Below the pieces are notes generated by a model that had not been told where the DNA came from, ran no database searches, and worked only from the letters and a program-made list of their open reading frames with translations. From the NCBI GenBank assembly GCA_034521735.1, contig JAXHLX010000021.1, forward strand, positions 24,714 through 88,713: a stretch of 64,000 nt of DNA, given 5' to 3'. The translations under genes and the position numbers were made by a program. This DNA is from Bacteroidales bacterium. Its GTDB lineage: Bacteria > Bacteroidota > Bacteroidia > Bacteroidales > VadinHA17. Shown piece by piece: positions 3,362 through 54,364 of this stretch (positions are counted from its first letter, which is position 1; each line of letters opens with the position of its first letter).

Positions 3362-3436
<75 letters not shown>

Positions 3437-3476: not shown

Positions 3477-3538
3477 GTTTTTAGCGGGGCTCGATCGGAG
3501 CTTGCTCCGGAGAGAGCCTCGGTGAAAACAAAAAGTGA

Positions 3539-3593
3539 TCGCGCAGCGATTGATTGTTTTTTGAATCTGCTCGCGCAGCGATTGATTGTTTTT
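3539..3593 (+). repeat. two direct copies of TCGCGCAGCGATTGATTGTTTTT (32-nt spacing) in the tRNA-Ala trailer
   Basis: Copies lie at 3539-3562 and 3571-3593. AAAAACAATCAA at 3445-3456 is the exact reverse complement of the TTGATTGTTTTT part. Confidence 0.7.
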
Positions 3594-3905
3594 ATTTTCA
3601 GTACTGAAGGTAAGGGGACGGTGAGCGAAGCGAACACCCCCCTGTCAGTTCTCCACCCCCCGTTTCAAAGAACATCTCTGTTTTTATATATGAAACTTGA
3701 TTAATCTGTTTTATATAAAACATATGTAATCAATCGCAAATATTATGCCGGTTTATTCAAAAATCGTATAACATTATTATAATCCATAAATTAAATTTAA
3801 CTTTTACTATAAAATTTCTTATTGCCGGCAGCTATTGGTCCCGGCTTAAGTTGAGGAGATTTATTATCTTTACCTCTTTCATCTAAAACAATAATCATAT
3901 TAATA

Positions 3906-13686: not shown

Positions 13687-14307
13687 TCAATCTGTTATAT
13701 CACCAAAGCCATATCCTTTCTGCATGCATATACCAATAAGTTTTTCAAGTACAGTAAGTGAACATCTGTCTTTTCTGTCATGCAGGACTATAACAGAACC
13801 CGGGCGGATCAGTTTTTCCGCCTTCTGCACTATATAATCCCTGCTGAGAGATAAATCGAAATCATATAGGAGCAGGTCCCAGAAAACTATCTTCACCCTG
13901 TCCTTAAGTCCCCTATACTGCGGCAGGGTAAGCCGGCCATAAGGAGGCCTGAAGAAAGATGAACCACTTAGCTCCGACCCTTTCAGGCAGTTATCGATAT
14001 AATCTTTTCTCCGGCTCTTCCACCCGTCAATATGATGATAGCCATGGTTTGCCACAGAAAAGCCATGGTCCCTTATCATCTCAATACTGCCGGGGTAATC
14101 AGGCATCTTCGAGCCCGTACAGAAAAACACGGCTTTACTGACACCAAAAGCAGAAAGAATATTTATTATCTCTTCAGTGCCCTTTTCAGTGGGCCCGTCA
14201 TCGAATGTAAGGTATACCTTTTTTTCATCACCTTCTGTCTGCCTGAATACAGCATCATTGTACAATAATCTCGCTACCCCGGGGTACCTAAAAAACCGTG
14301 GCTTCAT
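13687..14307 (-). CDS. polysaccharide deacetylase (NodB-type) family protein
   Basis: NodB motifs YLTFDDGP and HGYHH. 4-nt overlap with the upstream DUF2723 gene. Confidence 0.8.
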   Translation of the reverse strand: MKPRFFRYPGVARLLYNDAVFRQTEGDEKKVYLTFDDGPTEKGTEEIINILSAFGVSKAVFFCTGSKMPDYPGSIEMIRDHGFSVANHGYHHIDGWKSRRKDYIDNCLKGSELSGSSFFRPPYGRLTLPQYRGLKDRVKIVFWDLLLYDFDLSLSRDYIVQKAEKLIRPGSVIVLHDRKDRCSLTVLEKLIGICMQKGYGFGDITD

Positions 14308-17300
14308 GAAGGTCTCATAAATAACTCGTTATAATATCTGTCTATATCCTGTTCCATCTGTACTGACAACTCCTCTATCCCCATTCCAAGTGAGGTATTG
14401 AAAAGATTTATCAGGGCCTGCATATTCAGTCCTGTCACATAATCCAGATCATACCTCTGTAAAGGTGACAGTGTAAGCACAAAATCAAGATTTTCCTTTG
14501 CATTATTGATAATATCAGTGCCTATCTCAATAGCTTTTTCTTCTTCACCTATCCTGTAAAAGCCCCGGAAGAGGTTAAGTGAATAATAATCATGTCCCAG
14601 CTTTGAAGCCGGTATCACTTCGAGGCTCCTCTGCAGCACTTCCCCTGCTCTCAGGGTATCGCCCTCTTCAATCAGGGCCTCCGCAAGCATGCCGAACATC
14701 CTGCGGAAATTACTGAACATACGCCTGTTATTCTCATCAAGGTAAACATCAGGATCAGAAGCATTGCCCCATTTAAATTTGTTCATCACATTATCATACA
14801 TCGCCCTTGTATCAATAAAGCCTATATCCTGCGACCTGGTGCCTGTTGTATCAAGGGGTGCCACCCTGTATGCCAGTCCCTCCATCTGAAAATAATCATC
14901 GAGTCCCATATAATTGGATGGCGGAACAGTGCTGGCAAAATATATGGGCCGCTCCCACTTATTTGTGCCTATCATATCCATCACGGCAAGGTTATTCTTA
15001 TATAATTCATTACCGCTGTAGTCCCACACCACAAAATCAAGCATTCTGTCGGCCTGGTAATCTTTTACCGTTCCGTTGGATCTGACTTTTGCCGAATCAA
15101 CAGGTATCAGAAACTGGCTGGAGGGGATATAATTATAATAATCGCCCCTTCCGGAAAAATCCATCTTCCTCTGCCTTTCATCCGACCCCGCCCATTTAAC
15201 AAGCTCAATAATATCAAAGGGCCTGTTAACACGGTCTGTTACCGGCAATTGTTCCCTCTTGCCCGGTTCGTATTTTTCAGGCCCAAGAGTAAACTCCACC
15301 GGCTCTGACTCATAAGCTTCCTGTCTCATCATATTAATATACCAGCCGGCTGAAAGGTAGCTCAGGTTAGCCACCCTGACATCTGTTCTGATACCCTCAA
15401 CATCCTGTGCATACCACACCGGGAATGAGTCATTATCACCATATGTATACAGTATGGCATTCTCATCGCAACTGTTAAGATAATTACTGCCTATATCCCT
15501 TGCTGTGTACCTCCCGGAGCGGTCGTGGTCATCCCAGTTCTGGAAGGCCATAAGCAGTGGCACGGCAACAAGACAGACAGGAAAGGCTACAGCCAGCGCC
15601 AGCCTGTGTGAAAATATTTTCCTGAGATTATCCGTTAAGAAGCACAGACCAAGGCCTATCCATACTGAAAAAGCATAGAATGAGCCGGCATAGGCATAAT
15701 CCCTCTCGCGGGGCTGCAGCGGATACTGGTTAAGATATACCACTATGGCTATTCCGGTCATCACAAAAAGCACGGTAATAACCCAGAAGCCTTTACGATC
15801 TCTCTTATACTGCCATATCATGCCCAGTATTCCAAGTATCAAAGGCAGAAAGAAATAAGTATTCCTGCCCGGGTTGCTTTTTAATTCATCAGGCAGGGCT
15901 TTCTGATCGCCCAGCCTTGAGCTATCAATAAAATCAATACCACTGATCCAGTTTCCATGCATCACATTGCCGTTACCCTGTATATCGTTCTGCCTGCCGG
16001 CAAAATTCCACATAAAATACCTGCCATACATATAGCCCAGCTGGTAAGAGAAGAAAAATCTCAGGTTCTCGGCAAAGGTAGGCACAGTAAATTGCTGTCT
16101 GCCACCCGAGCTGTTAAGTGTGATCTTTTTGCCTTTTACCTGTCCCCAGTATTCATATTCGGAGCGGTGCCTGTCCTCCGGACTGTACATCCTCGGGAAT
16201 ACAGTGGTAAAACGGCTGTCAAACTCGTATTTGTTCTTCATGTAGGGCCTGTATTTATCATCCTCCTTGATATATCCCCCTCTCTCCTTCTCTACATCAA
16301 TAACCGGGGCAGAGTAATAATGGCCGGTCAGCAATGGCGTACTGCCATACTGTTCCCTGTTGATATAATATATCATCGAAAAAACATCAGAAGGATCATT
16401 CTGATTCATCGGGGGACTGGCATTTGCCCTTATCGGTATAAGTGCATATGATGAATAGCCCATCAATATAACAGCAAGAATGGTCAGGACATAATTAAGC
16501 AGTACCCTGCCCTTTCTGATGGAATACCTTATACCCCATATCAGCAGGCCTGTAAGCAGTATAATATAAAAATAAAGACCTGAATTAAAGGGAAGGCCCA
16601 GTCCGTTTACGAAAAAAAGCTCAAACCATCCTGCAACCTTTACGGTGTAGGGCAGCAGGATAAACACCAGCAGGATAAGCATGGCAAAGGCAATCAGCAA
16701 TGCCCTGATAATGCCTTTTGTGCTGACCGGGTTGGACCTGAAATAGTATACCAGCACGATGGCGGGCAATGCCAGCAGGTTAAGCAGGTGTACACCTGTT
16801 GACAGACCCATAAGGTAAGCAATAAGCACCAGCCACCGTCCTGTCAGCCTCTCATCCTTTTCATCTTCCCACTTAAGTATGGCCCAGAAAACCATTGCAG
16901 TGAAAAGTGAAGATGTTGCATATACTTCGCCCTCTGTGGCCGAGAACCAGAAAGTATCCGAGAAAGTAAAACTTAGAGCCCCTGTAAAACCTGCGGCAAT
17001 AACTGTAGCTATACCGGTAAACGAAGGGTCAGCCCTGTCGAGGAACACCTTTCGTGCCAGGTGGGTGATGGTCCAGAACAGGAACATAACAGTAAATGCG
17101 CTTGCCATTGCAGACATGAAATTAATCATCAGGGCTGCATTTGATTCATTCCCGAAACTGAACAGTGAAAAAAAGCGGCCGAGCAACAAAAAGAAAGGCG
17201 CACCGGGAGGATGGCCCACCTGCAGCTTCCATGCAGACAGTATAAACTCACCACAATCCCAGAAACTCACCGTTGGTTCAAGGGTCAGGGTATAAACCAC

Positions 17301-17369
17301 CAATGAAACAAGGAAAACCGTCCAGCCCGATATAATATTCGATCTTCTGAAAACCAGATTATAATTCAT
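14304..17369 (-). CDS. DUF2723 / GT-C-fold glycosyltransferase-like membrane protein (1021 aa)
   Basis: The N-terminus TLEPTVSFWDCGEF is the DUF2723 hallmark. About 11 TM segments and a large C-terminal soluble, TPR-like part. Confidence 0.8.
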   Translation of the reverse strand: MNYNLVFRRSNIISGWTVFLVSLVVYTLTLEPTVSFWDCGEFILSAWKLQVGHPPGAPFFLLLGRFFSLFSFGNESNAALMINFMSAMASAFTVMFLFWTITHLARKVFLDRADPSFTGIATVIAAGFTGALSFTFSDTFWFSATEGEVYATSSLFTAMVFWAILKWEDEKDERLTGRWLVLIAYLMGLSTGVHLLNLLALPAIVLVYYFRSNPVSTKGIIRALLIAFAMLILLVFILLPYTVKVAGWFELFFVNGLGLPFNSGLYFYIILLTGLLIWGIRYSIRKGRVLLNYVLTILAVILMGYSSYALIPIRANASPPMNQNDPSDVFSMIYYINREQYGSTPLLTGHYYSAPVIDVEKERGGYIKEDDKYRPYMKNKYEFDSRFTTVFPRMYSPEDRHRSEYEYWGQVKGKKITLNSSGGRQQFTVPTFAENLRFFFSYQLGYMYGRYFMWNFAGRQNDIQGNGNVMHGNWISGIDFIDSSRLGDQKALPDELKSNPGRNTYFFLPLILGILGMIWQYKRDRKGFWVITVLFVMTGIAIVVYLNQYPLQPRERDYAYAGSFYAFSVWIGLGLCFLTDNLRKIFSHRLALAVAFPVCLVAVPLLMAFQNWDDHDRSGRYTARDIGSNYLNSCDENAILYTYGDNDSFPVWYAQDVEGIRTDVRVANLSYLSAGWYINMMRQEAYESEPVEFTLGPEKYEPGKREQLPVTDRVNRPFDIIELVKWAGSDERQRKMDFSGRGDYYNYIPSSQFLIPVDSAKVRSNGTVKDYQADRMLDFVVWDYSGNELYKNNLAVMDMIGTNKWERPIYFASTVPPSNYMGLDDYFQMEGLAYRVAPLDTTGTRSQDIGFIDTRAMYDNVMNKFKWGNASDPDVYLDENNRRMFSNFRRMFGMLAEALIEEGDTLRAGEVLQRSLEVIPASKLGHDYYSLNLFRGFYRIGEEEKAIEIGTDIINNAKENLDFVLTLSPLQRYDLDYVTGLNMQALINLFNTSLGMGIEELSVQMEQDIDRYYNELFMRPS

Positions 17370-17472
17370 GTGATTATATTTTATTTATTTCATTGGCCAC
17401 ATGGAACTTACCATTAAAAAATAATCATACTCTTAATGTGAAATAATGATGATTTTTAAATGGACGTTTCAT
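17370..17472 (-). repeat. conserved leader module, copy A (abuts the ATG of the DUF2723 gene)
   Basis: Minus strand reads ATGAAACGTCCATTTAAAAATCATCATTATTTCACATTAAGAGTATGATTATTTTTTAATGGTAAGTTCCATGTGGCCAATGAAATAAATAAAATATAATCAC, then ATG. It is 100/103 identical to copy B. Confidence 0.85.
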
Positions 17473-17549
17473 AGGTTAAATCTTATTTTTGCCATTACGG
17501 GCGCTGTGCCCTTTTATAACTTCAGGATGTAAATATATTGAAAATGATA

Positions 17550-17816
17550 TTACCTGACATAATACCTCCATTCAATATCCCTCCAGAATGTGCCTGCATA
17601 ATCTATCCCAATACGCCGGCCTTTATCAATATCAACCTTACAGCCCCCGTCTTCGATCCATATCCTCTCTGAAACAGATATGTCTTCACCGTAAAATGAA
17701 CCGTCAATACCAAGATGACGGGTCAGTTTACCCGGCAATAAAGGTGCTATATCAAGCACATCAGCGGTAAAAAAATCCTCTTTTAAGCGTACTGCGGCTT
17801 TCATTTTAACAGTCAT
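17550..17816 (-). pseudogene. DNA-3-methyladenine glycosylase (Mpg/AAG family) remnant with in-frame internal deletion
   Basis: The 88-aa ORF joins the Mpg N-terminus (FFTADVLDIAPLLPGK) directly to the Mpg C-terminus (LTRHLGIDGSFYGEDI..IWIEDGG..RIGIDYAG..EWRYYV). Roughly 100 aa of catalytic core are missing. Confidence 0.65.
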
Positions 17817-21507: not shown

Positions 21508-22339
21508 ATGGCTGCAATAAGTGCTGCTGAAGTGGCAAAACTCAGAAAAATGACAGGAGCAGGGATGATGGACTGTAAAAAAGCCCTGCAGGAAGCTGAA
21601 GGTAATTTTGATAAGGCTGTGGAAATAATCAGGAAGAAAGGCCAGGCTGTGGCCTCCAAACGGGCTGACCGCGAGGCAGGTGAAGGAGTTGTGCTTGCAG
21701 GGGTATCAGGTGATGGCGGATTCGGTGCTATAATCGTTCTTAACTGCGAAACTGATTTCGTGGCCAGGAATGCCGACTTTGAAAAACTGGCAAATGAAAT
21801 ACTGGATAAAGCACTGGAGAACAAACCCGGAAGTCTTGATGAGCTGAAGGAATATTAAACTCGGTGATCAGACAATAGAAGAAAGGGTGATTGAACAGAT
21901 AGGGATAATTGGAGAGAAACTGGAATTATCTTATTACGACTTTATAAAGGCCGCCTATGTTCATGCTTATATCCACCCTGGCAATAAGCTGGCTACCATA
22001 GCAGGCTTTAATAAATCCGGACTGGACACCCAGGTATATAAAGATGTTGCAATGCAAATAGCGGCAATGAACCCGGTGGCAATCGACAAGGATGATGTTA
22101 CACAGGAAGAAATAGATAAAGAGATAGAGATAGGTAAGGAGCAGGCACGCCGCGAAGGCAAGCCGGATAATCTTCTTGAGAAAATAGCCATGGGTAAACT
22201 GGGTAAATTCTTTAAAGAGAACACCCTGCTTAACCAGGATTATGTAAAAGACAATAAACAAACTATCAAACAGTTCCTTAATTCGGTTGATAAGGACCTT
22301 ACCGTAACCGGTTTTAAAAGGTACACTCTGAACGATTAA
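21508..22339 (+). CDS. tsf: elongation factor Ts, interrupted by a 1-nt insertion at 21848-21856
   Basis: ORF 21508-21858 (AEVAKLRKMTGAGMMDCKKAL..NCETDFVARN) and ORF 21887-22339 (IGEKLEL..HPGNKLA..AMQIAAMNP) are the N- and C-halves of EF-Ts in adjacent frames. The span is 832 nt, which is 3n+1. Confidence 0.88.
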
Positions 22340-22428
22340 GCTGAGTGGAGCTGCTGATCCGGATATCCGGATTTTGTTCCAAGGTTACACTCTGAACGAT
22401 TAAGCTTTACGGGACTGCTGGTCCAGAT
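22319..22428 (+). repeat. 64-bp tandem duplication covering the last codons and stop of tsf
   Basis: ACACTCTGAACGATTAAGCT occurs at 22323-22342 and 22387-22406. The following ~20 nt are also related (GGAGCTGCTGATCCGGAT vs GGGACTGCTGGTCCAGAT). Confidence 0.8.
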
Positions 22429-22445
22429 AAAAAATAATACACTTA

Positions 22446-32065: not shown

Positions 32066-33076
32066 CTAATAACTCTCAAGAATCCTGTACAGCTCTGTAA
32101 GGTCCGGTGTCAGTATTATTTCGGTACGCCTGTTCTTCCTTCTTGCCTCCGCTGTTTTAGCATCCTCAACAGGCAAATATTCACTCCTCCCTGCTGCCGT
32201 CAGCCGCCGGGGATTAATACCGGTGCCGTCAAGCAACACCCTCACAACGGTTGTGGCCCTTTTAACACTTAAGTCCCAGTTATCCTGTATGGGTCCGCCC
32301 GAAGAGATATACGGTACATCATCAGTGTGACCCTCGATGGTTATCTGTATGTCAGGATTATTTTTCAATACAACAGCCAGCTTCTTCAGTGCATCACGGC
32401 CATTGGCATCAATATTATAGCTACCGGTCTGAAATAGCAGTTTCTCTTCAAGAGAAACATATACCTTCCCGTTTTTCATCGATACGCTAAGCCCGTCCCC
32501 TTCAAAACCAAACAGGGCATCTGACACCTTGTTCTTCAGGTCTTTCACTATCCTTGTCTGGTCCTCCAGTATCTGCTCCAGCTCGCTTAGCCTTTCATCC
32601 CTCTTCTCCAGCTCATAGGCCAGCTCATCAAGGGCAGCCCTCTTGGCCTCCATATTCATCTCCAGCTGGCGCATCAGATCCTCCTTGTTCTGAAGATTCT
32701 CCTGGGCCACCTGCAGTTCCCTCAGCAGACGCCTGGTCTCGGCAACATTACCACGTATAAGATCTTCCTGGGCTTTCTGCAAATCGGAATAGCGCTTGCT
32801 GATATCATTATATTCAGCCATAGCCCGGTCAAGCTCCTCCTGCAATGACTCCTTCTCCTGACCCATACCGGACAGCTCTTCCTCCAGCGACCTAATCTTT
32901 TCCTTCATCTCCCTGTTGCTCATAGAAAGATCAAGATTCTCCGTCTTAAACTCATCACGCTCATTCATATACTGAACACTCTTGTCATGCAGGGTCTTAT
33001 ACCTTCCCCCGGGAACACATGACACAAAAGCAAAAACGGTTAACAGAAAAAATATCAGGTATTTTATATTATTCAT
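32066..33076 (-). CDS. OmpA family lipoprotein with long coiled-coil region
   Basis: Lipobox FAFVSC, a ~170-aa heptad-rich region, and a C-terminal OmpA domain (GHTDDVP..NWDLSVKRATTVVRVL..NRRTEIIL). Confidence 0.85.
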   Translation of the reverse strand: MNNIKYLIFFLLTVFAFVSCVPGGRYKTLHDKSVQYMNERDEFKTENLDLSMSNREMKEKIRSLEEELSGMGQEKESLQEELDRAMAEYNDISKRYSDLQKAQEDLIRGNVAETRRLLRELQVAQENLQNKEDLMRQLEMNMEAKRAALDELAYELEKRDERLSELEQILEDQTRIVKDLKNKVSDALFGFEGDGLSVSMKNGKVYVSLEEKLLFQTGSYNIDANGRDALKKLAVVLKNNPDIQITIEGHTDDVPYISSGGPIQDNWDLSVKRATTVVRVLLDGTGINPRRLTAAGRSEYLPVEDAKTAEARRKNRRTEIILTPDLTELYRILESY

Positions 33077-33179
33077 GTGATTTTATTTAATTTATTTCAT
33101 TGGCCACATGGAACTTACCATTAAAAAATAATCATACTCTTAATGTGAAATAATGATGATTTTTTAATGGACGTTTCAT
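33077..33179 (-). repeat. conserved leader module, copy B (abuts the ATG of the OmpA-like gene)
   Basis: 100/103 identical to copy A. Flanks on both sides are unrelated. Confidence 0.85.
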
Positions 33180-35661: not shown

Positions 35662-37875
35662 CTATTTAAGATGCCTCTCAAGGTAATCAGTATATTGACT
35701 CATCAGCAGCATATAGGTTGTCATATCGGTTGCCAGCCCGTGTGCCCCCGGCGGGTATATCTTAAGATCAAAATCCTTACCCGCCATATTTAAGGCATTG
35801 ACCAGCTGAAAGGTATGCTGAGGGTGTACATTCTCATCCATCAGTGAATGGGCCAGCAGCAGGTGCCCCTGAAGGTTTGCCGCATGTGTTATTACCGCAC
35901 TCTGCTTATACCCTTCCGCATTATCATCCATCAGTCCCATATACCTCTCCGTAAGTATACAGTCGTAATACAGGTGGTCGGTTACCGGGGCGGCGGTAAT
36001 CGACACCTTGAAGACCCCCGGATGTGTCAGCATTGTGTAGCTGGACGTATAACCGCCGTAGCTGTGGCCACGTATAGCCATATTATCGCCGTCAATCCAG
36101 GGTTTGGACGCCATGTATCTGGCTGTCTCAACAAAATCATTCGACTCCCATTTGCCCAGCTGCCTGTGAACAATCTTTTCAAACTCGTAGCCATAGCCGC
36201 CATTACCCCTGTTATTCACAGATGCAATAAAGAAGCCCTGCTGCGCCAGCCACTGGTGCCAGCCGTTAGTTCCAAAGGTATTGAACACACCCTGTGATCC
36301 GGGACCTCCATATATGTCAAGAACCAGCGGGTATTCTTTGGTTTTGTCAAAATCAAGAGGTTTTATCAGATAGCCGTCCAGCTTCTGACCATCAGTTGTT
36401 ATAAAGCTGAACATCTCCCTGGGAGCATACTCATGAACATCAAGATACCTCAGCACTTCGCTGTTACCGGCCAGCTCCTCTATCTCTTCTCCTTCTGTGC
36501 TCATCAGCGAAACCACTGCAGGTGTATTAACATCCGAATAAGTGTCAATATAATATTTGCCATTATCCGAAACATTCACCCTGTGGTTACCTGCAGCTGT
36601 TGTAAGCCGCTTCTTCCTTTTACCCTTGAAATTTATGCTGTAAAGATTCTGTTCAGTGGGAGCCACCTCAGTAGATACATAATAGATAATTCCCTTATCC
36701 GTATCTATTGCTTCTATACCTTTCACCTCCCACTCGCCTTCCGTTACCTGGTTTATTATATTTCCGCTGTAATCGTAACGGTAGATATGTGCCCAGCCAT
36801 CACGCTCCGATATCCAGAAAAACTCCTGCAGATCTTCCGGGAAATAGATAAGGTGCAGGTTGCCGGCAAAGAAATCAAAAATGTCGATCCATGCATCTGA
36901 TTGCTCTTCCATCACCAGCTCACTGCTGCCACTGTTAACATCATAAAAGCGTATGGTCATCTTGCTCTGTATACGGTCCATCCACATAAGGGCAAGGGTA
37001 TTGGGCTTTGATGTCCAGTAGATACGGGGTATATAGCCTCCGTTTATATCTGTATCAAGCCATTTTTTCGTGTTATCCTCTGTATCTATCACTCCTATCT
37101 TAACCTGTGGCGGGTTATCTCCGACCTTTGGATACGGTACCTCCATATATTCCGGGTGGTGACCGGAAAAATCAGTAAGTTTATATATCGGCACCTCTGT
37201 TTCATCTGATTGCCAGTAGGCTATATACCTGCTGTCGCCCGACCATGACCATCCCTGTACCAGGCCAAACTCCTCCTCCTGGGCCCAGCCGAAACGGCCG
37301 TTATAAACCTGATCACGGGCATCGCTTGTAAACCTTTTATGCTCACCGCTTTCAAAGACAAAGCCGTAAAGATCACCCTCCTTGCCATAACCCAGCTTCT
37401 TGCCGTCAGGCGAGATCTCAGCACTGAAGGCCTGCTCAACTATCAGGTCAAGACTCTTGTCTTCAAGGGAATAGACATAATAGTCAGAGTTGCCTGAATA
37501 CCTCCAGATGGGATTGAAATTACACTGGAACAGGATACGGCTGAAATCAGTGGTCCATGCAAATGACACATACCTGAAAGGCTCTTCGCTGCCCGGGAAT
37601 TTAAGGTTTTCACTTGTAAAAACCATTTCTTCCTCCCCGGTATCCACCGTTCGTATCCATATCTCCTGTGCATTCTGGGAGTTACGGGTAAAGGAGAATC
37701 TATCTCCACCCTCAATCCATGTTATATTTGAAGGAGTCCCGCCAGTCCTAAGCTGCCCGGCAGAGGAGAGAGCCTCCTGCAGGCTTGAGTAAAGCTCTTT
37801 TTGCGCCTGTACTGATGCAGGTGCTGTCAGTAACAGCGACAATACAATAATGATAAGACCTTTAATGTTTTTCAT
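35662..37875 (-). CDS. dipeptidyl-peptidase IV-type S9 family peptidase, exported
   Basis: Signal peptide, a DPP-IV-like N-terminal propeller, and the triad context GHSYGGY, MDENVH and PGAHGL. Confidence 0.85.
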   Translation of the reverse strand: MKNIKGLIIIVLSLLLTAPASVQAQKELYSSLQEALSSAGQLRTGGTPSNITWIEGGDRFSFTRNSQNAQEIWIRTVDTGEEEMVFTSENLKFPGSEEPFRYVSFAWTTDFSRILFQCNFNPIWRYSGNSDYYVYSLEDKSLDLIVEQAFSAEISPDGKKLGYGKEGDLYGFVFESGEHKRFTSDARDQVYNGRFGWAQEEEFGLVQGWSWSGDSRYIAYWQSDETEVPIYKLTDFSGHHPEYMEVPYPKVGDNPPQVKIGVIDTEDNTKKWLDTDINGGYIPRIYWTSKPNTLALMWMDRIQSKMTIRFYDVNSGSSELVMEEQSDAWIDIFDFFAGNLHLIYFPEDLQEFFWISERDGWAHIYRYDYSGNIINQVTEGEWEVKGIEAIDTDKGIIYYVSTEVAPTEQNLYSINFKGKRKKRLTTAAGNHRVNVSDNGKYYIDTYSDVNTPAVVSLMSTEGEEIEELAGNSEVLRYLDVHEYAPREMFSFITTDGQKLDGYLIKPLDFDKTKEYPLVLDIYGGPGSQGVFNTFGTNGWHQWLAQQGFFIASVNNRGNGGYGYEFEKIVHRQLGKWESNDFVETARYMASKPWIDGDNMAIRGHSYGGYTSSYTMLTHPGVFKVSITAAPVTDHLYYDCILTERYMGLMDDNAEGYKQSAVITHAANLQGHLLLAHSLMDENVHPQHTFQLVNALNMAGKDFDLKIYPPGAHGLATDMTTYMLLMSQYTDYLERHLK

Positions 37876-37995
37876 GTGATTATATTTAATTTATTTCATA
37901 TGGCATGGAACCGCTCGTTCCTCGCTCTCACAAGAAAACTTTAAGCATTCTTGTTTGCGAAAATTTAATTCTTAAATTTTTAATAGACGTTTCAT
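37876..37995 (-). repeat. conserved leader module, copy C (abuts the ATG of the DPP-IV gene)
   Basis: Minus strand reads ATGAAACGTCTATTAAAAATTTAAGAATTAAATTTTCGCAAACAAGAATGCTTAAAGTTTTCTTGTGAGAGCGAGGAACGAGCGGTTCCATGCCATATGAAATAAATTAAATATAATCAC, then ATG. Same terminal boxes as the other copies, different core. Confidence 0.8.
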
Positions 37996-38204: not shown

Positions 38205-40380
38205 ATGAGATTTTTCAATCTGCTTTTGCTGATACTTTTCTTTTATCCAATACAATTAAGCGGAGAAAATTCCCCGGCAGATTTACTATTAACAGCTGAT
38301 GGAATTAACTGCTCAACAGAGTATTCGGGGAATATCAGGCATGCACCAAATCCATTATGGGACCCGGGAGATTTTATTGACGGGAAGGGGGTTCAAAAAA
38401 GTATTAGTGCAGACTATATAAAGAATCTTAAGGATAAACTTTATGTCTCCTTCCGGCAAGTATATTACAACGGCCGGGTCAGTATTGACAGTCACCCTGA
38501 AAAAGGTTTTTTTGAAAGAAATATTAAACTTTTCCTGTTGCTGGCGGGACTGTTACTCCTTGTTTCGTTGCTGATATTTTCAAACATAAGCATACTGAAG
38601 CAGCAGGTACGTAAAAAAACTGCTGAACTACAGAAAACAGCTATGGCATGAACAATTGACCAGGGCAAAAGAAAAAGCGGAGATAAGTGAGAAAAAATTA
38701 TCTCTTTTAAATGAAATGGTTCTGGAAATTTTAAAACAGCAAAAGCTCGAAGACATCTATAACTATATAAGCGGCAGCCTGCAGAAACAGTTCCCCGGTA
38801 CGATAGTTTTGTGTACCTCGATTAACGAAGCCAGGAATAATTCGAGACTGGAATCGGTATCCGGACTTGACAACAACCTTTTGAACAGGATCATGAAAAT
38901 TTCAGGTTTCAACCCTGTTGGAAAGAATTATAATCTCACCACATTGCACCATAAGTATTTCAAATCAGGGAAACTGGTTGAATTTGAAGGCGGGCTGGCT
39001 GATTTTTCAGCCACTGAATTTCCCAAAGCGGCAGCAAGAACCATTCATAAACTTATCGGCATAAATAAGATATATACAATTGGTATCAACAAAGATGATA
39101 GCCTGTTTGCAGCCATCCATTTCTTTTCACGTAATAAAAATGATAATATACTGGATGATGCTGCTTTCATTGAAACATTCGTCAACCAGGCCGGCCTCGT
39201 TTTACAAAAATTTATGATCAGGGAAGAGTTGATTAAAGCAAAAGATAAAGCAGAAGAAAGCGACAGGCTTAAGTCAAACTTCCTGCAGAATATGTCGCAT
39301 GAAATACGTACACCGCTGAATGCAATAGTCGGCTTTTCTCAATTAATGACCGATCCTCAACTGACAGAAGAGGAACATAAGACATATGCAGACCAGATAC
39401 AAAACGGAAGTGATAAGCTAACCAGTGTGATAAAGGATATTATTGAAATATCCCAGGTGCAGTCAGGACAGGCAGAGCTAAGCAAAACTGAATTTGACCT
39501 TGTCGGTTTAATCACTGAGCTAACATCATCAGTGTCTGAAAAGGCGAAAAACAAAAACCTTGAATTAACGGTTCATCAAAAAATTGCACAGGAGAAATTT
39601 AACATTGAAACAGACAGGGAAAAGTTACGGGCAATACTAATTCATTTAATGGACAATGCTGTTAAGTTTACATCCGAAGGATCCGTTAAGATAATTACTG
39701 ACATCAGGGATGACAATCTGCATTTCTCCATTTCAGATACCGGTATTGGGATATCCCCGGAAACACAAAAAGTCATTTTTAAACCCTTCCGTCAGAGTGA
39801 TACGGATACCCGCCGCAAATTCGGAGGTAACGGACTGGGACTTTCACTGGTCAGGGCATATGCGGACTTACTCGGCGGTACCATAAAACTTGAATCAAAA
39901 ATCAATAAGGGAACAACAGTTACTGTCTCTTTACCCATAAGCGCAAAGACCGCAGGTGAAACGGCAAAAGTGCCTGAGAGCAGCAATGTCAGGGCTGCTT
40001 CGAATGATAATAATAAAAACACTGTTATCATTGCTGAAGATGAATATGCCAATTTCCTGTATCTGAAGCAATTGATAAAGAAAGACAATGTAAATGTGCT
40101 GCATGCAAAGGATGGATACGAAGTCATTGATCTGTGCAGGAATGACTCCGCAGTAAATCTCATCTTTATGGATATAAAAATGCCGAATATGGATGGTCAC
40201 ACAGCGGCTAAAATGATAAAGGAATTCCGGCCTGAACTGCCTATAATTGCCCAGACAGCTTATGCGCTGGAATCCGATAAGAAGAAATTCGCTGATGTTT
40301 TTGATGATTATCTGATCAAGCCAATTGAGAAAGCCAGGGTTCAACAAATAATCAAAAAGTACGGTAGTGCCCTTAACTAG
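38205..40380 (+). CDS. hybrid sensor histidine kinase/response regulator, split by a 1-nt insertion between 38599 and 38651
   Basis: ORF 38205-38651 supplies the signal/periplasmic part and a TM. ORF 38656-40380 supplies the coiled coil, a sensor domain, HisKA (SHEIRTPLNAI), HATPase (GGNGLGLSLV) and REC (DIKMPNMDG). The span is 2176 nt, which is 3n+1. Candidate indel sites are the A7 run at 38613-38619 or the A4 run at 38634-38637. Confidence 0.8.
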
Positions 40381-40503: not shown

Positions 40504-40587
40504 GCCCGGATGGCGGAATTGGTAGACGCGCTGGTCTCAAACACCAGTGGCCGCGAGGCCGTGCCGGTTCGACCCCGGCTCCGGGTA
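40504..40587 (+). tRNA. tRNA-Leu (anticodon CAA)
   Basis: Hand-folded: anticodon stem CTGGT/ACCAG with loop CT-CAA-AC; long variable arm GGCC-gcga-GGCC; T arm GCCGG-TTCGACC-CCGGC. Confidence 0.88.
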
Positions 40588-40590
40588 CAG

Positions 40591-40634
40591 AAACGGAAGA
40601 AACGGATTTTTGATCTTGTTCTTCCGTTTTTTTT
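40591..40634 (+). terminator. terminator after tRNA-Leu
   Basis: ACGGAAGAA (40593-40601) pairs with TTCTTCCGT (40619-40627), followed by T8. Confidence 0.65.
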
Positions 40635-40752
40635 GTAAGTGCATTCGGTATTCTTGAATATACATTCAGGGACTTTGTTGTATAATATAAAGACGATACA
40701 TTTAAAAGAAAATAATACCCGGCGTCGCTTCGTAACCTTGTTTCTGTAAAAA

Positions 40753-42042
40753 TCATAATATACAGATGAAAATCTCCCTCTTCAGGCAGCCTATTGGAAC
40801 TACCAACACACCATCAGACCGTCTGTATGCAACATGACCTCCTGTGAGTACCATAAGAAAAGAAGGACTATTCATCTTTGCTTTATCAATTTTTTCACTG
40901 AGCTTTAATAAGTTAGCAGCAGCTTCGTCAATTTGCTTCATGCCAAGTTTAACTTCAACAGCAGCCCACCGACCATCATGAAGTTTTAAAATAAAATCTG
41001 CTTCCAATTCTGATTTATCCCGATAGTGGAATACTTCTCCATCAAGAGCCTGGCTATACACTCTCAAATCACGCGTACACAGGGACTCAAATAAGAACCC
41101 AAATGTTTCAAAGTCCCTTAAAATCCCCTGAGCATTAGTGCGCATTGCAGCTGTTGCTATTGATGGATCAACAAATTGGCGTTTGTGTGACGTGCGTATT
41201 GCCGTCTTTGAGCGAAGTGAAGGTTGCCAGGCAGGGACATCTTCAATAACAAATAATCTGCGGAGGGCATTGAGATATGAAGTCAATGTCTTATTTGTTA
41301 TTGATGTCTCGTTAACCTGCATATCGCCCATAATCGTCTTCGCTGTTGCAAGAGTGGAAACATTTCTAGCCAACGATTGTAACAACACCCGAACTCTTTC
41401 AGGGTCTTTTTCAATCCCATCCACACGCTGAATATCCATGTTTATTATAGCATCGACATAGTTCATTGCTGTTCGTGTAGACTCTTTCCCGGACACAACG
41501 GCAGCGGGCCATCCTCCCCTGCAAATTGCATTTGCTATTTGATCTATTGTTAAAATACTCTTTGCTCCAATCTCCGTTTCTCCATTAAACAAATCTTTGA
41601 GAGATACTTTCCCATTTGATTCTCCAGACTCAAACAAGCTCATGGGCCGCATAAGCATTCTGGCAATTCTTCCCGTTCCAGAATGAGCAACTCCATCGTC
41701 GGTGGGTGTTGCTGAACCGGTAAGAATAAACTGCCCCATCAAGCCTCGTTTATCGACGGCAAATCTTACAGCATCCCGAAATAACCGGGGCCATCTGCCA
41801 CTCATCAAGAAGCAAAGGGGGATTTCCCTCTAACAGCAGCGATGGTTGAGTATCTGCCATAGCCAAATACCCGGGCCCCTCATCAGGATCCTGCATATAT
41901 ACAACACTTTTTGCTTTTTGTAAAGATGATTCTGTTTTACCACACCACTTTGCTCCTTCAATAAGCACTGCCCCTGTGGATTCAGAGTAAACTTTCGAGT
42001 AGCTATATCACTAATACGAGATATGTATTTACCAGTTTTCAC
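40753..42042 (-). pseudogene. AAA-family ATPase (AAA_14/DUF4143-like) with two compensating homopolymer frameshifts
   Basis: Three ORF pieces (41830-42042, 41750-41968, 40753-41808). The frame changes at the C4 run 41971-41974 and the G4 run 41787-41790. The corrected reading gives ..LNPQGAVLIEGAKWCGKTE..LLLDEWQMARLFRDAVRFAVDKRG..FILTGSA. Confidence 0.7.
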
Positions 42043-42423: not shown

Positions 42424-43629
42424 TTATAGTTTCATCTTGTAAATCAAGAGTATATCGTTATCATCCGTTTTGATAGATTCTGCCAGCATCTCCAGTTTAG
42501 GAATGATATTCATATCTTTTGTATCCTCAATTTTCTTTCTGAGAGCATCGATAAATGTGATAGCAGGGTAGTGGAATATTATGTATTCATTATTATAGAT
42601 GAAAGGTCGTCTGCTTTCTGTAATGTCAAACCGGAAGTCATTGATTATCTCAAAAAAGAAGGCTTCCCCGGAATCTTTATCCACAGCAAGGAGTTTTGTT
42701 GAATGTGCCTTACCGTTTATCGTTACTGAAAGCAAATAATGATTAGCTGTCTCTCCAAGTAATTTGATACTGTAACAGCCCTCTGTTGCTGCAAGGATGT
42801 TTTCAAATCTACCCGGTCCGGTTGAACTCCTGGCTTCCCTGATCTTTGCTTCATCAAACTTATATCTATCTGTGAATACTGTGGCTACAGGGGTGACCTT
42901 CCCCTCCAATGATAAAGAATATATTGTATCAGATTCTCCAATCTTAAAGTGATAATCTTCATCGAATGGGTATACTATACTTGTGTTAGTTGAATATGTG
43001 AAGTAATCTGACGGTATTCTGTTCTTTATCTTAATAACATTTTCATTATCAATAGTTTTTATGACAATCATATTCCTGGAATCAACATTTCCGGGTTTAA
43101 TGACTTTGTTGTTATGTATTAGTACTCTGTTGGCACCCTGATCATCAGATCGTCCGAACGCATTTATCTTTTTAACTAATTCTCCGGAGTTATTGTATAC
43201 GAAAACCCATCCCTCTTTCGGATGCGAATAGTTGCCTCCAAGCTGCAACCATATTGAATTATCATTTTTATCTATATGAGGAGAAACAACTGAAGTGTAT
43301 TCATCCGGGCCAACTCCTATGCTACCAATGTCTCTGATATATTCACCTGTTGTTGTAAAAAGTTTGGCAGGTTTCTGATCCCTGTCGACAATCAGGATAT
43401 ATTCATCATTGAGCGCAAATTCTGTTGGATTATTGAGCAGTGCCGCTTCACTGGATTCAAGTAATACCATCCTGAATTCCCTGGCTATTTCACTCAGATA
43501 TAATTTTCTGGTCTCAATATTGTCGATATTTACTGAGAGATCAACTTCTGTTTCATTAGCCGTGGAGCCCTTTCTTCCCGAGCAACTGCCAACCAGAAGG
43601 ATGATAGCAATAATGATACTTTTATTCAT
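42424..43629 (-). CDS. hypothetical lipoprotein, possibly 6-bladed beta-propeller family
   Basis: Lipobox ILLVGSCSG. 401 aa with repetitive beta-rich segments. The family assignment is from memory of similar Bacteroidales lipoproteins and is tentative. Confidence 0.7.
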   Translation of the reverse strand: MNKSIIIAIILLVGSCSGRKGSTANETEVDLSVNIDNIETRKLYLSEIAREFRMVLLESSEAALLNNPTEFALNDEYILIVDRDQKPAKLFTTTGEYIRDIGSIGVGPDEYTSVVSPHIDKNDNSIWLQLGGNYSHPKEGWVFVYNNSGELVKKINAFGRSDDQGANRVLIHNNKVIKPGNVDSRNMIVIKTIDNENVIKIKNRIPSDYFTYSTNTSIVYPFDEDYHFKIGESDTIYSLSLEGKVTPVATVFTDRYKFDEAKIREARSSTGPGRFENILAATEGCYSIKLLGETANHYLLSVTINGKAHSTKLLAVDKDSGEAFFFEIINDFRFDITESRRPFIYNNEYIIFHYPAITFIDALRKKIEDTKDMNIIPKLEMLAESIKTDDNDILLIYKMKL

Positions 43630-43737
43630 GTGATTATATTTTATTTATTTCATTGGACACATGCCTGTCTGCCGAACAGGCATGCCCGCCTGCAGGTTGG
43701 TTGTGAAATAATGGTAATTTTTTAATGGACGTTTCAT
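43630..43737 (-). repeat. conserved leader module, copy D (abuts the ATG of the lipoprotein gene)
   Basis: Minus strand reads ATGAAACGTCCATTAAAAAATTACCATTATTTCACAACCAACCTGCAGGCGGGCATGCCTGTTCGGCAGACAGGCATGTGTCCAATGAAATAAATAAAATATAATCAC, then ATG. Confidence 0.8.
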
Positions 43738-52999: not shown

Positions 53000-54364
53000 A
53001 TGAAACGCTATACTGTACTTGCTCTGATAATTATTATCTGCGGATCAACTGCTATTGCACAGGAGATAATTAGGAGGGATCCTGTTATCAGCGATATGGT
53101 TGAACAGATATCGAGAGATAATATAGAAGCATATATTACAAAGCTTGTAAGCTTCCATACCCGCCATAACCTGAGTGCGCAGGATGATCCTGAGAAAGGC
53201 ATAGGAGCATCATGGAACTGGGTAAAGCAGGAGATGGAAAAATATATTCCGCAATCAGATGGCCGCCTGTCAGTTGAATTTGTAAAATACAGCGTTGGAG
53301 GTGAGGGCCAGAGGATAAGTGATGAGACGGAACTAAGGAATGTGGTGGCCACACTTGAAGGTGTTGACCCTGAAGACGACAGGATACTTATGATCAGCGC
53401 CCACCTTGACAGTCGAGTTGAAGATAATTACGACGGCACATCATTCGCCCCCGGGGCCAACGATGACGGCTCAGGTGTTGCTGCTATACTCGAACTGGTG
53501 AGGATTATGTCTGACCATAAATTCCCCGCAACAATAAAATTCATGGTGGTGACAGGTGAGGAACACGGTCTCTACGGTGCCTCGGCTATGGCTGACATTG
53601 CCGAAGAAGAGAACTGGAATATCGTTGCCATGCTGAATAATGATATGATAGGTAACAGCGGATCAAGCGGCACCCTGCTGAATGATAATATGAGGGTAAG
53701 GGTTTTCAGCGAAGGTGTACCGGCTTATGAAACAGAACAAATGGAAAGGCTCCGATCATATACCGCAGCAGAGAATGATGGCAGTGCCAGGCAGCTGGCA
53801 CGCTATGTCAAGGAGGTGGGAGAAAGATATGTTGACCAGCTTGATGTTACACTTATATACAGGAATGACAGGTTCGGTCGCGGAGGCGACCATACACCAT
53901 TCTGCAGGAAAGGCTTCACGGCTGTCAGGATATGCGAATTCAATGAGAATTATAAGCGTACGCATACCACACCCGGTGAAAGGGATGGTATAATGTACGG
54001 CGACCTGCCGGAGGGTGTCGATTATGAGTATGTACGCAAGAATGCAGGCATTAACCTTGCCACTCTGGCTAACCTGGCATCATCACCGCGGCAAGCTCTG
54101 AATGCCGGTATAGTAACGGCCGGAATGAGCAATTTCACAACCCTGCAATGGGAAAAGCCCGACAAAGGCAAAGAACCGGAAGGTTATTATATACTGCTGC
54201 GCGAGACATACCAGTCTATGTGGCAAAAGAAAATATTTGTAAGGGGCACAGAAGTCACACTGCCCTATTCAAAAGACAACTATTTCTTTGCCATACAGAG
54301 TGTTGATGCAGAAGGACATGAAAGTCTGCCCGTTTTCCCTGGACCAGCAAGACGCAGCAGGTAA
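53000..54364 (+). CDS. M28 family metallopeptidase, exported, with C-terminal Fn3-like domain
   Basis: Signal peptide and Zn-ligand contexts SAHLDS, NDDGSGVAAILE, GEEHGLYG and NNDMIG. Confidence 0.85.
   Translation: MKRYTVLALIIIICGSTAIAQEIIRRDPVISDMVEQISRDNIEAYITKLVSFHTRHNLSAQDDPEKGIGASWNWVKQEMEKYIPQSDGRLSVEFVKYSVGGEGQRISDETELRNVVATLEGVDPEDDRILMISAHLDSRVEDNYDGTSFAPGANDDGSGVAAILELVRIMSDHKFPATIKFMVVTGEEHGLYGASAMADIAEEENWNIVAMLNNDMIGNSGSSGTLLNDNMRVRVFSEGVPAYETEQMERLRSYTAAENDGSARQLARYVKEVGERYVDQLDVTLIYRNDRFGRGGDHTPFCRKGFTAVRICEFNENYKRTHTTPGERDGIMYGDLPEGVDYEYVRKNAGINLATLANLASSPRQALNAGIVTAGMSNFTTLQWEKPDKGKEPEGYYILLRETYQSMWQKKIFVRGTEVTLPYSKDNYFFAIQSVDAEGHESLPVFPGPARRSR

Follow-up and report, generated by a model that had tools for sequence, protein, structure and literature searches.

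Small bacterial repeats are usually described as intergenic. The Correia repeats of Neisseria (CREE), the RUP and BOX elements of the pneumococcus and ERIC/IRU have inverted repeats at their termini and a duplicated target (TA in the case of Correia), insert in either orientation between genes, and are co-transcribed with the neighbouring genes, with hairpins in the mRNA as a possibility. The Rickettsia palindromic elements (RPE) insert in frame inside genes and are translated within the protein. The mycobacterial MIRUs, reportedly described by Supply et al. in 1997, are said to hold small ORFs and to overlap with their ends the stop and start codons of the flanking genes. Elements of the IS200/IS605 kind have two hairpins, one per end, the foot of each being preceded on its 5′ side by a short guide, and IS608 inserts 3′ of a tetranucleotide that is kept in the left flank, its cleavage sites being read by guides that the element itself carries (PMC5934647); further papers relate to IS200/IS605-type and REP/RAYT elements (PMC3201880, PMC3333891, PMC8266576).

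The stretch of 64,000 nucleotides of Bacteroidales DNA analysed here (the window) contains members of an element family that inserts at the start codon without damage to the gene, since the 3′ end of the element rebuilds the ATG or GTG plus AA. The best explanation overall, which is given a probability of about 0.75, is a non-autonomous mobile family of ~100–120 nt that inserts 3′ of ATGAA and restores the start; that the element is at once mobile, ATGAA-specific and start-restoring, and is not the leader of a regulon, is held with high confidence. Like Correia/CREE, RUP, BOX and ERIC/IRU, it is small, abundant and non-coding, and shows insertion polymorphism between close relatives, but it has no terminal inverted repeats, makes no target duplication, does not insert in either orientation, and lands on a start codon. 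With the MIRUs it shares the preservation of the adjacent gene’s translation signals and a short ORF in the repeat upstream of the real gene; the MIRUs, however, are tandem minisatellites in operons of Actinobacteria, with no pentamer target, no hairpin-plus-guide and no sequence similarity to the element. The RPE are likewise palindromic mobile repeats that are tolerated in contact with coding sequence, whereas the element remains outside the protein and rebuilds the start codon. Landing on and rebuilding start codons is the distinguishing property, of which we could not find a description; a literature search for MITEs that target start codons in Bacteroidetes returned only unrelated MITEs of P. 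gingivalis.

A sequence-only reading had pointed to four minus-strand segments (A, 17472–17370; B, 33179–33077; C, 37995–37876; D, 43737–43630), each leading directly into the ATG of a long ORF. All four were recovered where it had placed them, the 5′ box ATGAAACGTCYATTWAAAAAT and the 3′ box ATGAAATAAATWAAATAWAATCACATG giving four matches each in the window at up to three mismatches, where 0.03 and 0 would be expected. On the minus strand, the copies begin with the common invariant ATGAAACGTC(C/T)ATT(A/T)AAAA and end with ATGAAATAAAT(A/T)AAATA(A/T)AATCAC-ATG-AA, and A and B are 96% identical across 113 nt. Pfam agrees with the gene identities given for all four products, namely a TMEM260-like/DUF2723 protein behind A, OmpA behind B, DPP-IV behind C and a DUF5128 six-bladed propeller behind D, and with their description as exported or membrane proteins. 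Both boxes are real, but their identity has changed: the 5′ box, rather than a free-standing motif, is the native ATGAA followed by ACGT and the 5′ arm of a hairpin, P1, and the 3′ box consists of the loop and the 3′ arm of a second stem, P2, with the start codon in that arm and the noted ATG-AAA-TAA start-stop in that loop. The hairpin-forming core had been called variable, which holds in C and D only; A, B and most copies elsewhere have a conserved hairpin. The cores of C and D had no match elsewhere in the sequence data collected for this analysis.

Features of the four element copies, in window coordinates (position 1 is the first nucleotide of the window)
Feature	Position	Strand	Evidence or relation
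Copy A, native ATGAA (original start codon plus 2 nt), left of the insert	17468–17472	-	single ATGAA in the L035 empty site
Copy A, insert of 103 nt, ACGTCC to AATCAC plus regenerated ATGAA	17365–17467	-	absent from the L035 ortholog locus and from L036–L040
Copy A, P1: 5′ arm CCATTTAAAAATCATCAT (17463–17446), loop of 17 nt (17445–17429), 3′ arm ATGATTATTTTTTAATGG (17428–17411)	17411–17463	-	folding
Copy A, internal segment GTTCCATGTG, complementary to the element’s 3′ end CACATGAA (17372–17365)	17398–17407	-	folding and covariation
Copy A, A-rich P2 loop GCCAATGAAATAAATAAAATATAAT, containing the start-stop ATGAAATAA	17373–17397	-	stops in all three frames
Copy A, regenerated ATG	17369–17367	-	current start of the DUF2723/TMEM260-like gene (14304–17369)
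Copy B, native ATGAA (33179–33175) and 103-nt insert (33174–33072)	33072–33179	-	empty sites L044, L045, L046
Copy B, regenerated ATG	33076–33074	-	starts the OmpA-family gene (32066–33076)
Copy C, native ATGAA (37995–37991) and 120-nt insert with a different core	37871–37995	-	empty sites L046, L044
Copy C, regenerated ATG	37875–37873	-	starts the DPP-IV gene (35662–37875)
Copy D, native ATGAA (43737–43733) and 108-nt insert	43625–43737	-	orthologous filled site in D1M01_35 (L034)
Copy D, regenerated ATG	43629–43627	-	starts the DUF5128 propeller lipoprotein gene (42424–43629)

Relatives of the source genome were identified through searches with the proteins encoded downstream of the copies, and the DNA that encodes the closest homologues was then compared. 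The relatives with empty sites have nucleotide identities between 87 and 97% (87–90% in DNA for those that bear on window copies), and clean empty sites were found for A, B and C as well as for L005, a copy in another genome; at these sites the gene begins with one native ATGAA and the upstream flank is unaltered. The filled site of copy A runs from gatttaacct through ATGAA and the insert (ACGTCC to AATCACATGAA) into TTATAATCTGG, and its empty counterpart in L035, where the encoded protein is 92% identical, reads aaaataaaatttaactaactt and then ATGAATTATAATCTG, with TTATAATCTG directly after the ATGAA. Copy B is flanked by ggactgcc and, after ATGAA and its 103 nt, by TAATATAA, where the empty sites read ctgcc followed by ATGAATAATATAAGA, also read as ctgcc followed by ATGAATAATA. 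Copy C lies between aggtatc with ATGAA on the left and, beyond its 120 nt, AAACATT, in place of agatatc followed by ATGAAAAACGTT at the empty sites. Within the 7–17 kb of each relative with an empty site for a window copy, no copy of the element was seen anywhere; the genomes GCA_964458625.1, GCA_964529295.1 and GCA_041686415.1 count as element-free relatives. Because clean empty sites exist in such close relatives, the module is mobile DNA and not a conserved leader; among the roles that had been proposed for it, that of a small non-autonomous repeat is the one borne out by the insertion polymorphisms at A, B, C and L005.

Copy D is also present at the orthologous site of the MAG D1M01_35 and, since it is common to both genomes yet differently rearranged inside, is older. 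In the window this copy is without the 3′ arm of P1 and has a GC-rich hairpin in its place, and the GC-rich hairpins differ between the two genomes (TGCCTGTCAGGCGACAGGCA in L034; L034 3512–3591, window 43655–43705). The comparison indicates that secondary insertions and deletions occurred inside old copies.

In the five filled/empty comparisons (A, B, C and L005) the junctions are exact and fall directly after ATGAA. Most copies have ATGAA on both sides and the empty sites have a single one, which is what a classical MITE moved by a DDE transposase and duplicating a 5-bp target ATGAA would leave behind, and the tandem copies of two genomes (L004 and L029), which have one ATGAA in common, would fit such an origin as well. 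Against it, the left and right pentamers disagree in six copies, where ATGAA stands on the left and GTGAA on the right. One of these is L005, a near-consensus copy in which ggaaagc is followed by ATGAA, by the element from ACGTCC to AATCAC-GTGAA, and by AATAAAGG; the empty site in L050, a 95–97% identical genome, reads gtaaagc followed by ATGAAAATAAAGG, with native ATGAAA. As the empty site has ATG and the right end of L005 has GTG, the right-hand pentamer arrives with the element, and the Nif3 gene at L005 consequently now starts with GTG. From this one discriminating pair and the recurrence of GTG it follows that ACGTCC...CAC+RTGAA is what was inserted, 3′ of ATGAA, and that the 5 bp only look duplicated. 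A DDE transposase is further disfavoured by the lack of terminal inverted repeats (the ends are ACGTCCATT and ATATAATCAC), by the covariation of the right-hand RTG with the internal segment, and by the polarity relative to the non-palindromic target, which is the same in all copies found independently of the search pattern; such a MITE is considered quite unlikely.

For an element that inserts 3′ of ATGAA and brings its own right-hand pentamer, the sharing of one ATGAA by tandem copies is expected, because the element’s own end recreates a good target. At L029 (5922–5975), a degenerate copy that has lost its hairpin is found directly upstream of a full copy, and at L004 (6227–6273) a partial copy occupies the same position, the ATGAA being common to both members of each pair. 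The target may extend beyond the pentamer: C is present at -3 in 22 of 32 left flanks, as compared to 16–26% at native starts (p = 5e-7). Most of the non-window copies were found via a pattern that contains the left ATGAA and would miss reversed or GTGAA-flanked copies; the constancy of ATGAA and the absence of reversed copies are thus partly a matter of ascertainment, only about six copies having been found independently. The gene of an M28 peptidase at window position 53000–53007 natively begins with ATGAAACG, the first eight bases of the element’s left junction; this was judged a chance resemblance, as the rest of the element does not follow.

Copies in other genomes were collected by an exact-match scan with the 5′ box in one genome per species, which yielded 34 loci, taken as 8-kb blocks out of fragmented MAGs. 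About 26 of them carry the element, and some eight were rejected as chance matches in which the rest of the element is missing; several of these (L009, L012, L016 and L022 among them) are genuine N-termini of proteins with MKRLLKI-type sequence, and L013, L018 and L021 were judged to be chance or decayed matches. One full copy and one partial copy came in addition from a profile search. Besides the source genome, six or more Bacteroidales or Bacteroidota MAGs contain the element: D1M01_35 (JBKHBA01) has at least 14 copies and Zod_Metabat.1005 (JAFGBD01) has 7, and further carriers are Y22_0dBSd3.bin.43, bin.693, Zod_Metabat.688 and MAG054. A scan of JGI metagenomes with the 3′ box gave only three chance matches, without the element, and no canonical copy, and scans of the IMG/VR viral collection gave 0 matches to the central motif and three chance N-terminal matches to the 5′ box. 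The canonical subfamily is rare in the metagenome collection, and the family appears to be confined to a narrow lineage, given that neither collection contained a canonical copy. Other small repeats were noticed in these MAGs, namely a 40-nt piece that sits inside an element immediately after an internal ATGAA (L010 1375–1414), and a unit GCGATCTCATGAACGAAGTGAATAA that recurs in tandem in Zod_Metabat.1005 and is also found beside a copy in Y22 bin.43 (L028 about 3600–3810, L011 275–296). Other ATGAA-targeting passengers may exist in these MAGs.

The order of parts is ATGAA-ACGT, the hairpin P1, TAA-GTTCCATGTG, a 25-nt A-rich stretch and CAC-ATG-AA. P1 is an AT-rich imperfect hairpin of 18 bp, situated 4 nt from the left end of the element, in which CCATTAAAAAATCATCAT, a 17-nt loop and ATGATTATTTTTTAATGG follow one another, and it is found on folding either strand. 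Across 19 aligned copies, 91% of the P1 cells are paired, with compensatory changes between subfamilies. At L007 (1281–1391), the interior of P1 (the loop with the imperfect inner stem) runs in the opposite direction to that of every other copy, between unaltered flanks, and this looks like a palindrome flip. In stem P2, the internal segment of 9–10 nt (TTC(C)ATGTG) pairs with the 3′ terminus CAC-RTG-AA, the new start codon included, and the right end consists of this stem only, taking in the terminus itself, with no separate subterminal hairpin.

Taken together, P1 and P2 have 88.5% of cells paired, against 40–50% in slid controls. Covariation in P2 rests on two diverged sequences, L029 and L031, which show double changes at pairs 82–115, 83–114 and 84–113: in L029 CACAAG stands opposite CTTGTG, and in L031 CACTTG opposite CAAGTG, TTTCACTTG and CAAGTGAAA forming a perfect 9 bp. 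A GTG start in diverged subfamilies has its G opposite a C of the internal arm. Compensatory changes, for which the sequence-only reading had proposed a check, are therefore present both in P1 (19 copies) and in P2 (L029, L031). The same internal segment of copy A has an alternative partner in the left junction ATGAAAC (17472–17466), and in 13 of the 19 copies the pairing of CNN-ATGAAAC with this segment includes a C(-3)-G pair. Folding energy does not set the whole element apart (thermodynamic z-scores of -0.95 to -1.5); the case for structure is built on conservation and covariation instead.

Where the target ATGAA is the beginning of a gene, whose protein then starts with MK or MN, the last five bases of the element restore the start codon and the two bases after it, which leaves the protein unchanged. 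The original ATG stays upstream and opens a short ORF that stops inside the element. In copy A, the old start opens an ORF of 15 codons (MKRPFKNHHYFTLRV), and in 17 of 21 copies the final 40 nt contain stop codons in all three frames. The short ORF that had been read from the 5′ box (MKRPLKN...) exists in this sense, as the old start codon reading into the insert; as a conserved leader peptide it was rejected, for both its length (14 to 29 codons) and its sequence vary with the subfamily.

Whether copies always abut an ATG had been proposed as a check. Of the 21 independent copies whose 3′ junction could be read, 17 lie exactly against the start of a long ORF (L017 is counted among these through its variant end), but four, L001, L004, L006 and L003:433-323 (L003b), lie next to no gene start, that of L004 being at the 3′ end of a convergent gene. 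By crude gene calls that approximate the start with the longest ORF, 19 of the 53 window genes natively start with ATGAA, and ATGAA sites outside the elements in the window number 189 in genes, 33 between genes and 15 at unoccupied starts. In the window the element occupies 4 of the 19 starts but none of the 33 intergenic or 189 genic sites (starts versus intergenic, p = 0.014). Of the 21 independent copies, 81% are at starts, compared to 37% expected if all non-genic ATGAA were equally likely (p = 4e-5). With ATGAA at the beginning of about one third of genes, and with intragenic insertions being lost, start codons would be safe landing sites where the survivors collect, and because ATGAA is needed and intragenic insertions are lost, starts are the expected major safe site. 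There is an extra preference for starts beyond this neutral expectation, of which an extended target (C at -3) may be a part-cause.

The sequence-only reading had favoured, among other roles, a shared cis-regulatory leader, either a 5′-UTR RNA or a protein-binding site, that coordinates envelope or exported proteins. The exported or membrane products behind all four window copies, the sense orientation that is always observed upstream of a gene, and the conserved stem over the start codon are in line with such a leader. The products behind copies elsewhere, however, include cytoplasmic ones: by their N-terminal sequence they were judged to be rlmH, MurB, a Nif3-like protein (confirmed by the Pfam annotation of homologues), a MinD/ParA-like ATPase, a GH65-like phosphorylase, a DegT-like aminotransferase and several secreted proteins. 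In addition, the orthologs in 87–97% identical genomes do without the element, the four copies next to no gene start have nothing to lead, and Rfam 15 gave no match at gathering thresholds in the window nor at E<=1 in 17300–17560. The envelope bias, which comes from only four window genes, is statistically weightless, and because cytoplasmic genes follow copies elsewhere, the envelope theme is a small-sample accident. The envelope leader was therefore abandoned, and is regarded as very improbable.

The effect of an insertion on the host gene can be considered apart from such a regulon. After insertion, the native promoter and initiation region precedes a short uORF, and the real start is ~100 nt downstream, with C at -3, extra AUGs nearby and a place within a stem of some -5 kcal/mol. 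Translation in Flavobacterium johnsoniae starts more readily where an A stands at -3 and structure is weak, and AUGs are under-represented around its start codons (PMC6847099). The portable expression cassette, another role that had been put forward, is weakened by these same features (C at -3, extra AUGs, stem over the start), and the element looks more like a mild handicap to expression. It could nevertheless be imagined that a mobile element was co-opted as a translational control unit, in which the uORF, the stops in three frames and the start-hiding stem are kept because the tuning is useful. The enrichment at start codons above the neutral expectation, the uORF that always ends before the new start, the inclusion of the start codon in a covarying P2 (about -5 kcal/mol as RNA), and the fact that structure, an A at -3 and AUGs close by influence initiation in Bacteroidetes (PMC6847099) would all suit this idea; but the structure is kept also in the copies without a downstream gene (L001, L004, L006, L003b), the genes are functionally unrelated, the insertions are missing in sister genomes, and a sequence this AT-rich would be expected to contain stops in every frame. 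Co-option is accordingly viewed as unlikely, and in the preferred reading, that of a mobile element that inserts 3′ of ATGAA and restores the start, the influence of the uORF and of a start in a weak stem on the downstream gene would be a side effect and not the element’s reason for being.

Insertion immediately 3′ of ATGAA, a replacement start borne by the element, the lack of terminal inverted repeats, one conserved hairpin, and the conserved pairing of an internal segment with the right terminus are shown by the sequences. This combination comes closest to single-strand transposition by HUH/Y1 enzymes, of the IS200/IS605 kind with its non-autonomous derivatives, and the fit is incomplete. 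IS200/IS605 elements with PATEs, and the REP/BIME mobilised by RAYT (TnpA-REP), resemble the element in having no terminal inverted repeats and an imperfect hairpin near the left end, in inserting 3′ of a short sequence that is kept on the left without true target duplication, and in combining an internal sequence complementary to the end or cleavage region with high copy number and no transposase of their own. The element differs from IS200/IS605 in having one strong hairpin and not one per end. In IS608 the guide is of 4 nt and lies 5′ of the hairpin foot, whereas the putative guide of the element lies 3′ of its hairpin and forms a canonical stem of 6–9 bp, and the left and right cleavage sites of IS608 are TTAC and TCAA, whereas the right end of the element repeats the target pentamer.

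It is tentatively proposed, as a possibility short of probable, that an HUH/Y1-type transposase acting in trans moves the element as single-stranded DNA, in the manner of IS200/IS605 or REP-RAYT, in which case the internal segment would be the guide that pairs both with the target (CNN-ATGAA) and with the right-end cleavage site (CAC-RTGAA). Against this, the internal segment of L029 and L031 matches GTGAA, yet their left flank is ATGAA. By Pfam, no transposase is encoded in the window, which fits a non-autonomous element; a regular expression for the IS200-TnpA motif found nothing in 1139 ORF segments from ~400 kb of related loci, a weak negative, and among the collected loci there was none in which a 5′ box and a 3′ box flank coding sequence, as an autonomous parent would have. 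All four window copies are on the minus strand, compared to 9 of the 19 genes that start with ATGAA (one-sided p = 0.03, with n = 4 and confounded with gene orientation). The GC skew of the plus strand is mostly negative, and the window copies are on the G-rich strand, a placement that agrees with targeting of the lagging-strand template, again on four copies and confounded with gene direction.

Mobilisation by a sequence-specific recombinase and not by HUH, be it of the IS110/IS1111 bridge-RNA type or a tyrosine or serine recombinase, would account for the missing terminal inverted repeats, the fixed polarity at a defined sequence and the lack of a true duplication. The conserved target of ~5–6 bases (C at -3 plus ATGAA) is, however, short for such systems, a bridge RNA would not fit into so small an element, and no gene of this type was seen in the window by Pfam; this route is considered improbable. 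Returning to the single-strand route, the more specific reading is that of an undescribed guide-bearing transposon that targets the start-codon context C-N-N-ATGAA, uses its own 3′ end to repair the start, and puts a uORF and a start-masking stem before dozens to hundreds of unrelated genes. As a whole this is speculative and rated on the unlikely side.

Several other features of the window were recorded in passing. Upstream of copy A, the gene of a 3-methyladenine DNA glycosylase (Pur_DNA_glyco; 17550–17816, minus strand) encodes 88 aa as compared to 172 aa in L035, residues of about 28–111 being missing through an apparently in-frame deletion between two PGK(L/F) microhomologies. Divergent from copy C, a hybrid histidine kinase (38205–40380, plus strand) is split into a 148-aa ORF with no Pfam match and an ORF of 554–574 aa, where L046 has a single GAF-HisKA-HATPase-receiver protein of 899 aa and ~520 nt without counterpart in the window; it may be a decaying gene. 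Between this kinase and copy D, a DUF4143 (AAA-ATPase-associated) gene (40504–41805) is found beside a tRNA (40504–40587), and this could be the remnant of an integrated element. Short direct repeats were seen at 22317–22429, where a 49-nt unit is repeated at a spacing of 64 nt with 80% identity downstream of an ORF, and at 3536–3593, where the 26-nt unit TGATCGCGCAGCGATTGATTGTTTTT occurs twice, ~100 nt after a tRNA at 3362–3435.

If the density of four copies per 64 kb holds genome-wide, a few hundred copies per genome would be expected. Each copy adds a decoy start codon and a short upstream ORF and can switch a gene from ATG to GTG, and for these reasons start-site calls and 5′-UTR predictions in these MAGs are affected; the element may also explain contig breaks in related assemblies. 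If the guide pairing is right, the target of a very small element would be readable from its own sequence, and it is to such readable targeting that IS608 and its relatives owe their use as programmable tools. Should the reading of a start-codon-homing transposon be true, it would mean a new transposition specificity, and a genome-wide rewiring of translation in Bacteroidales, which are SD-less.
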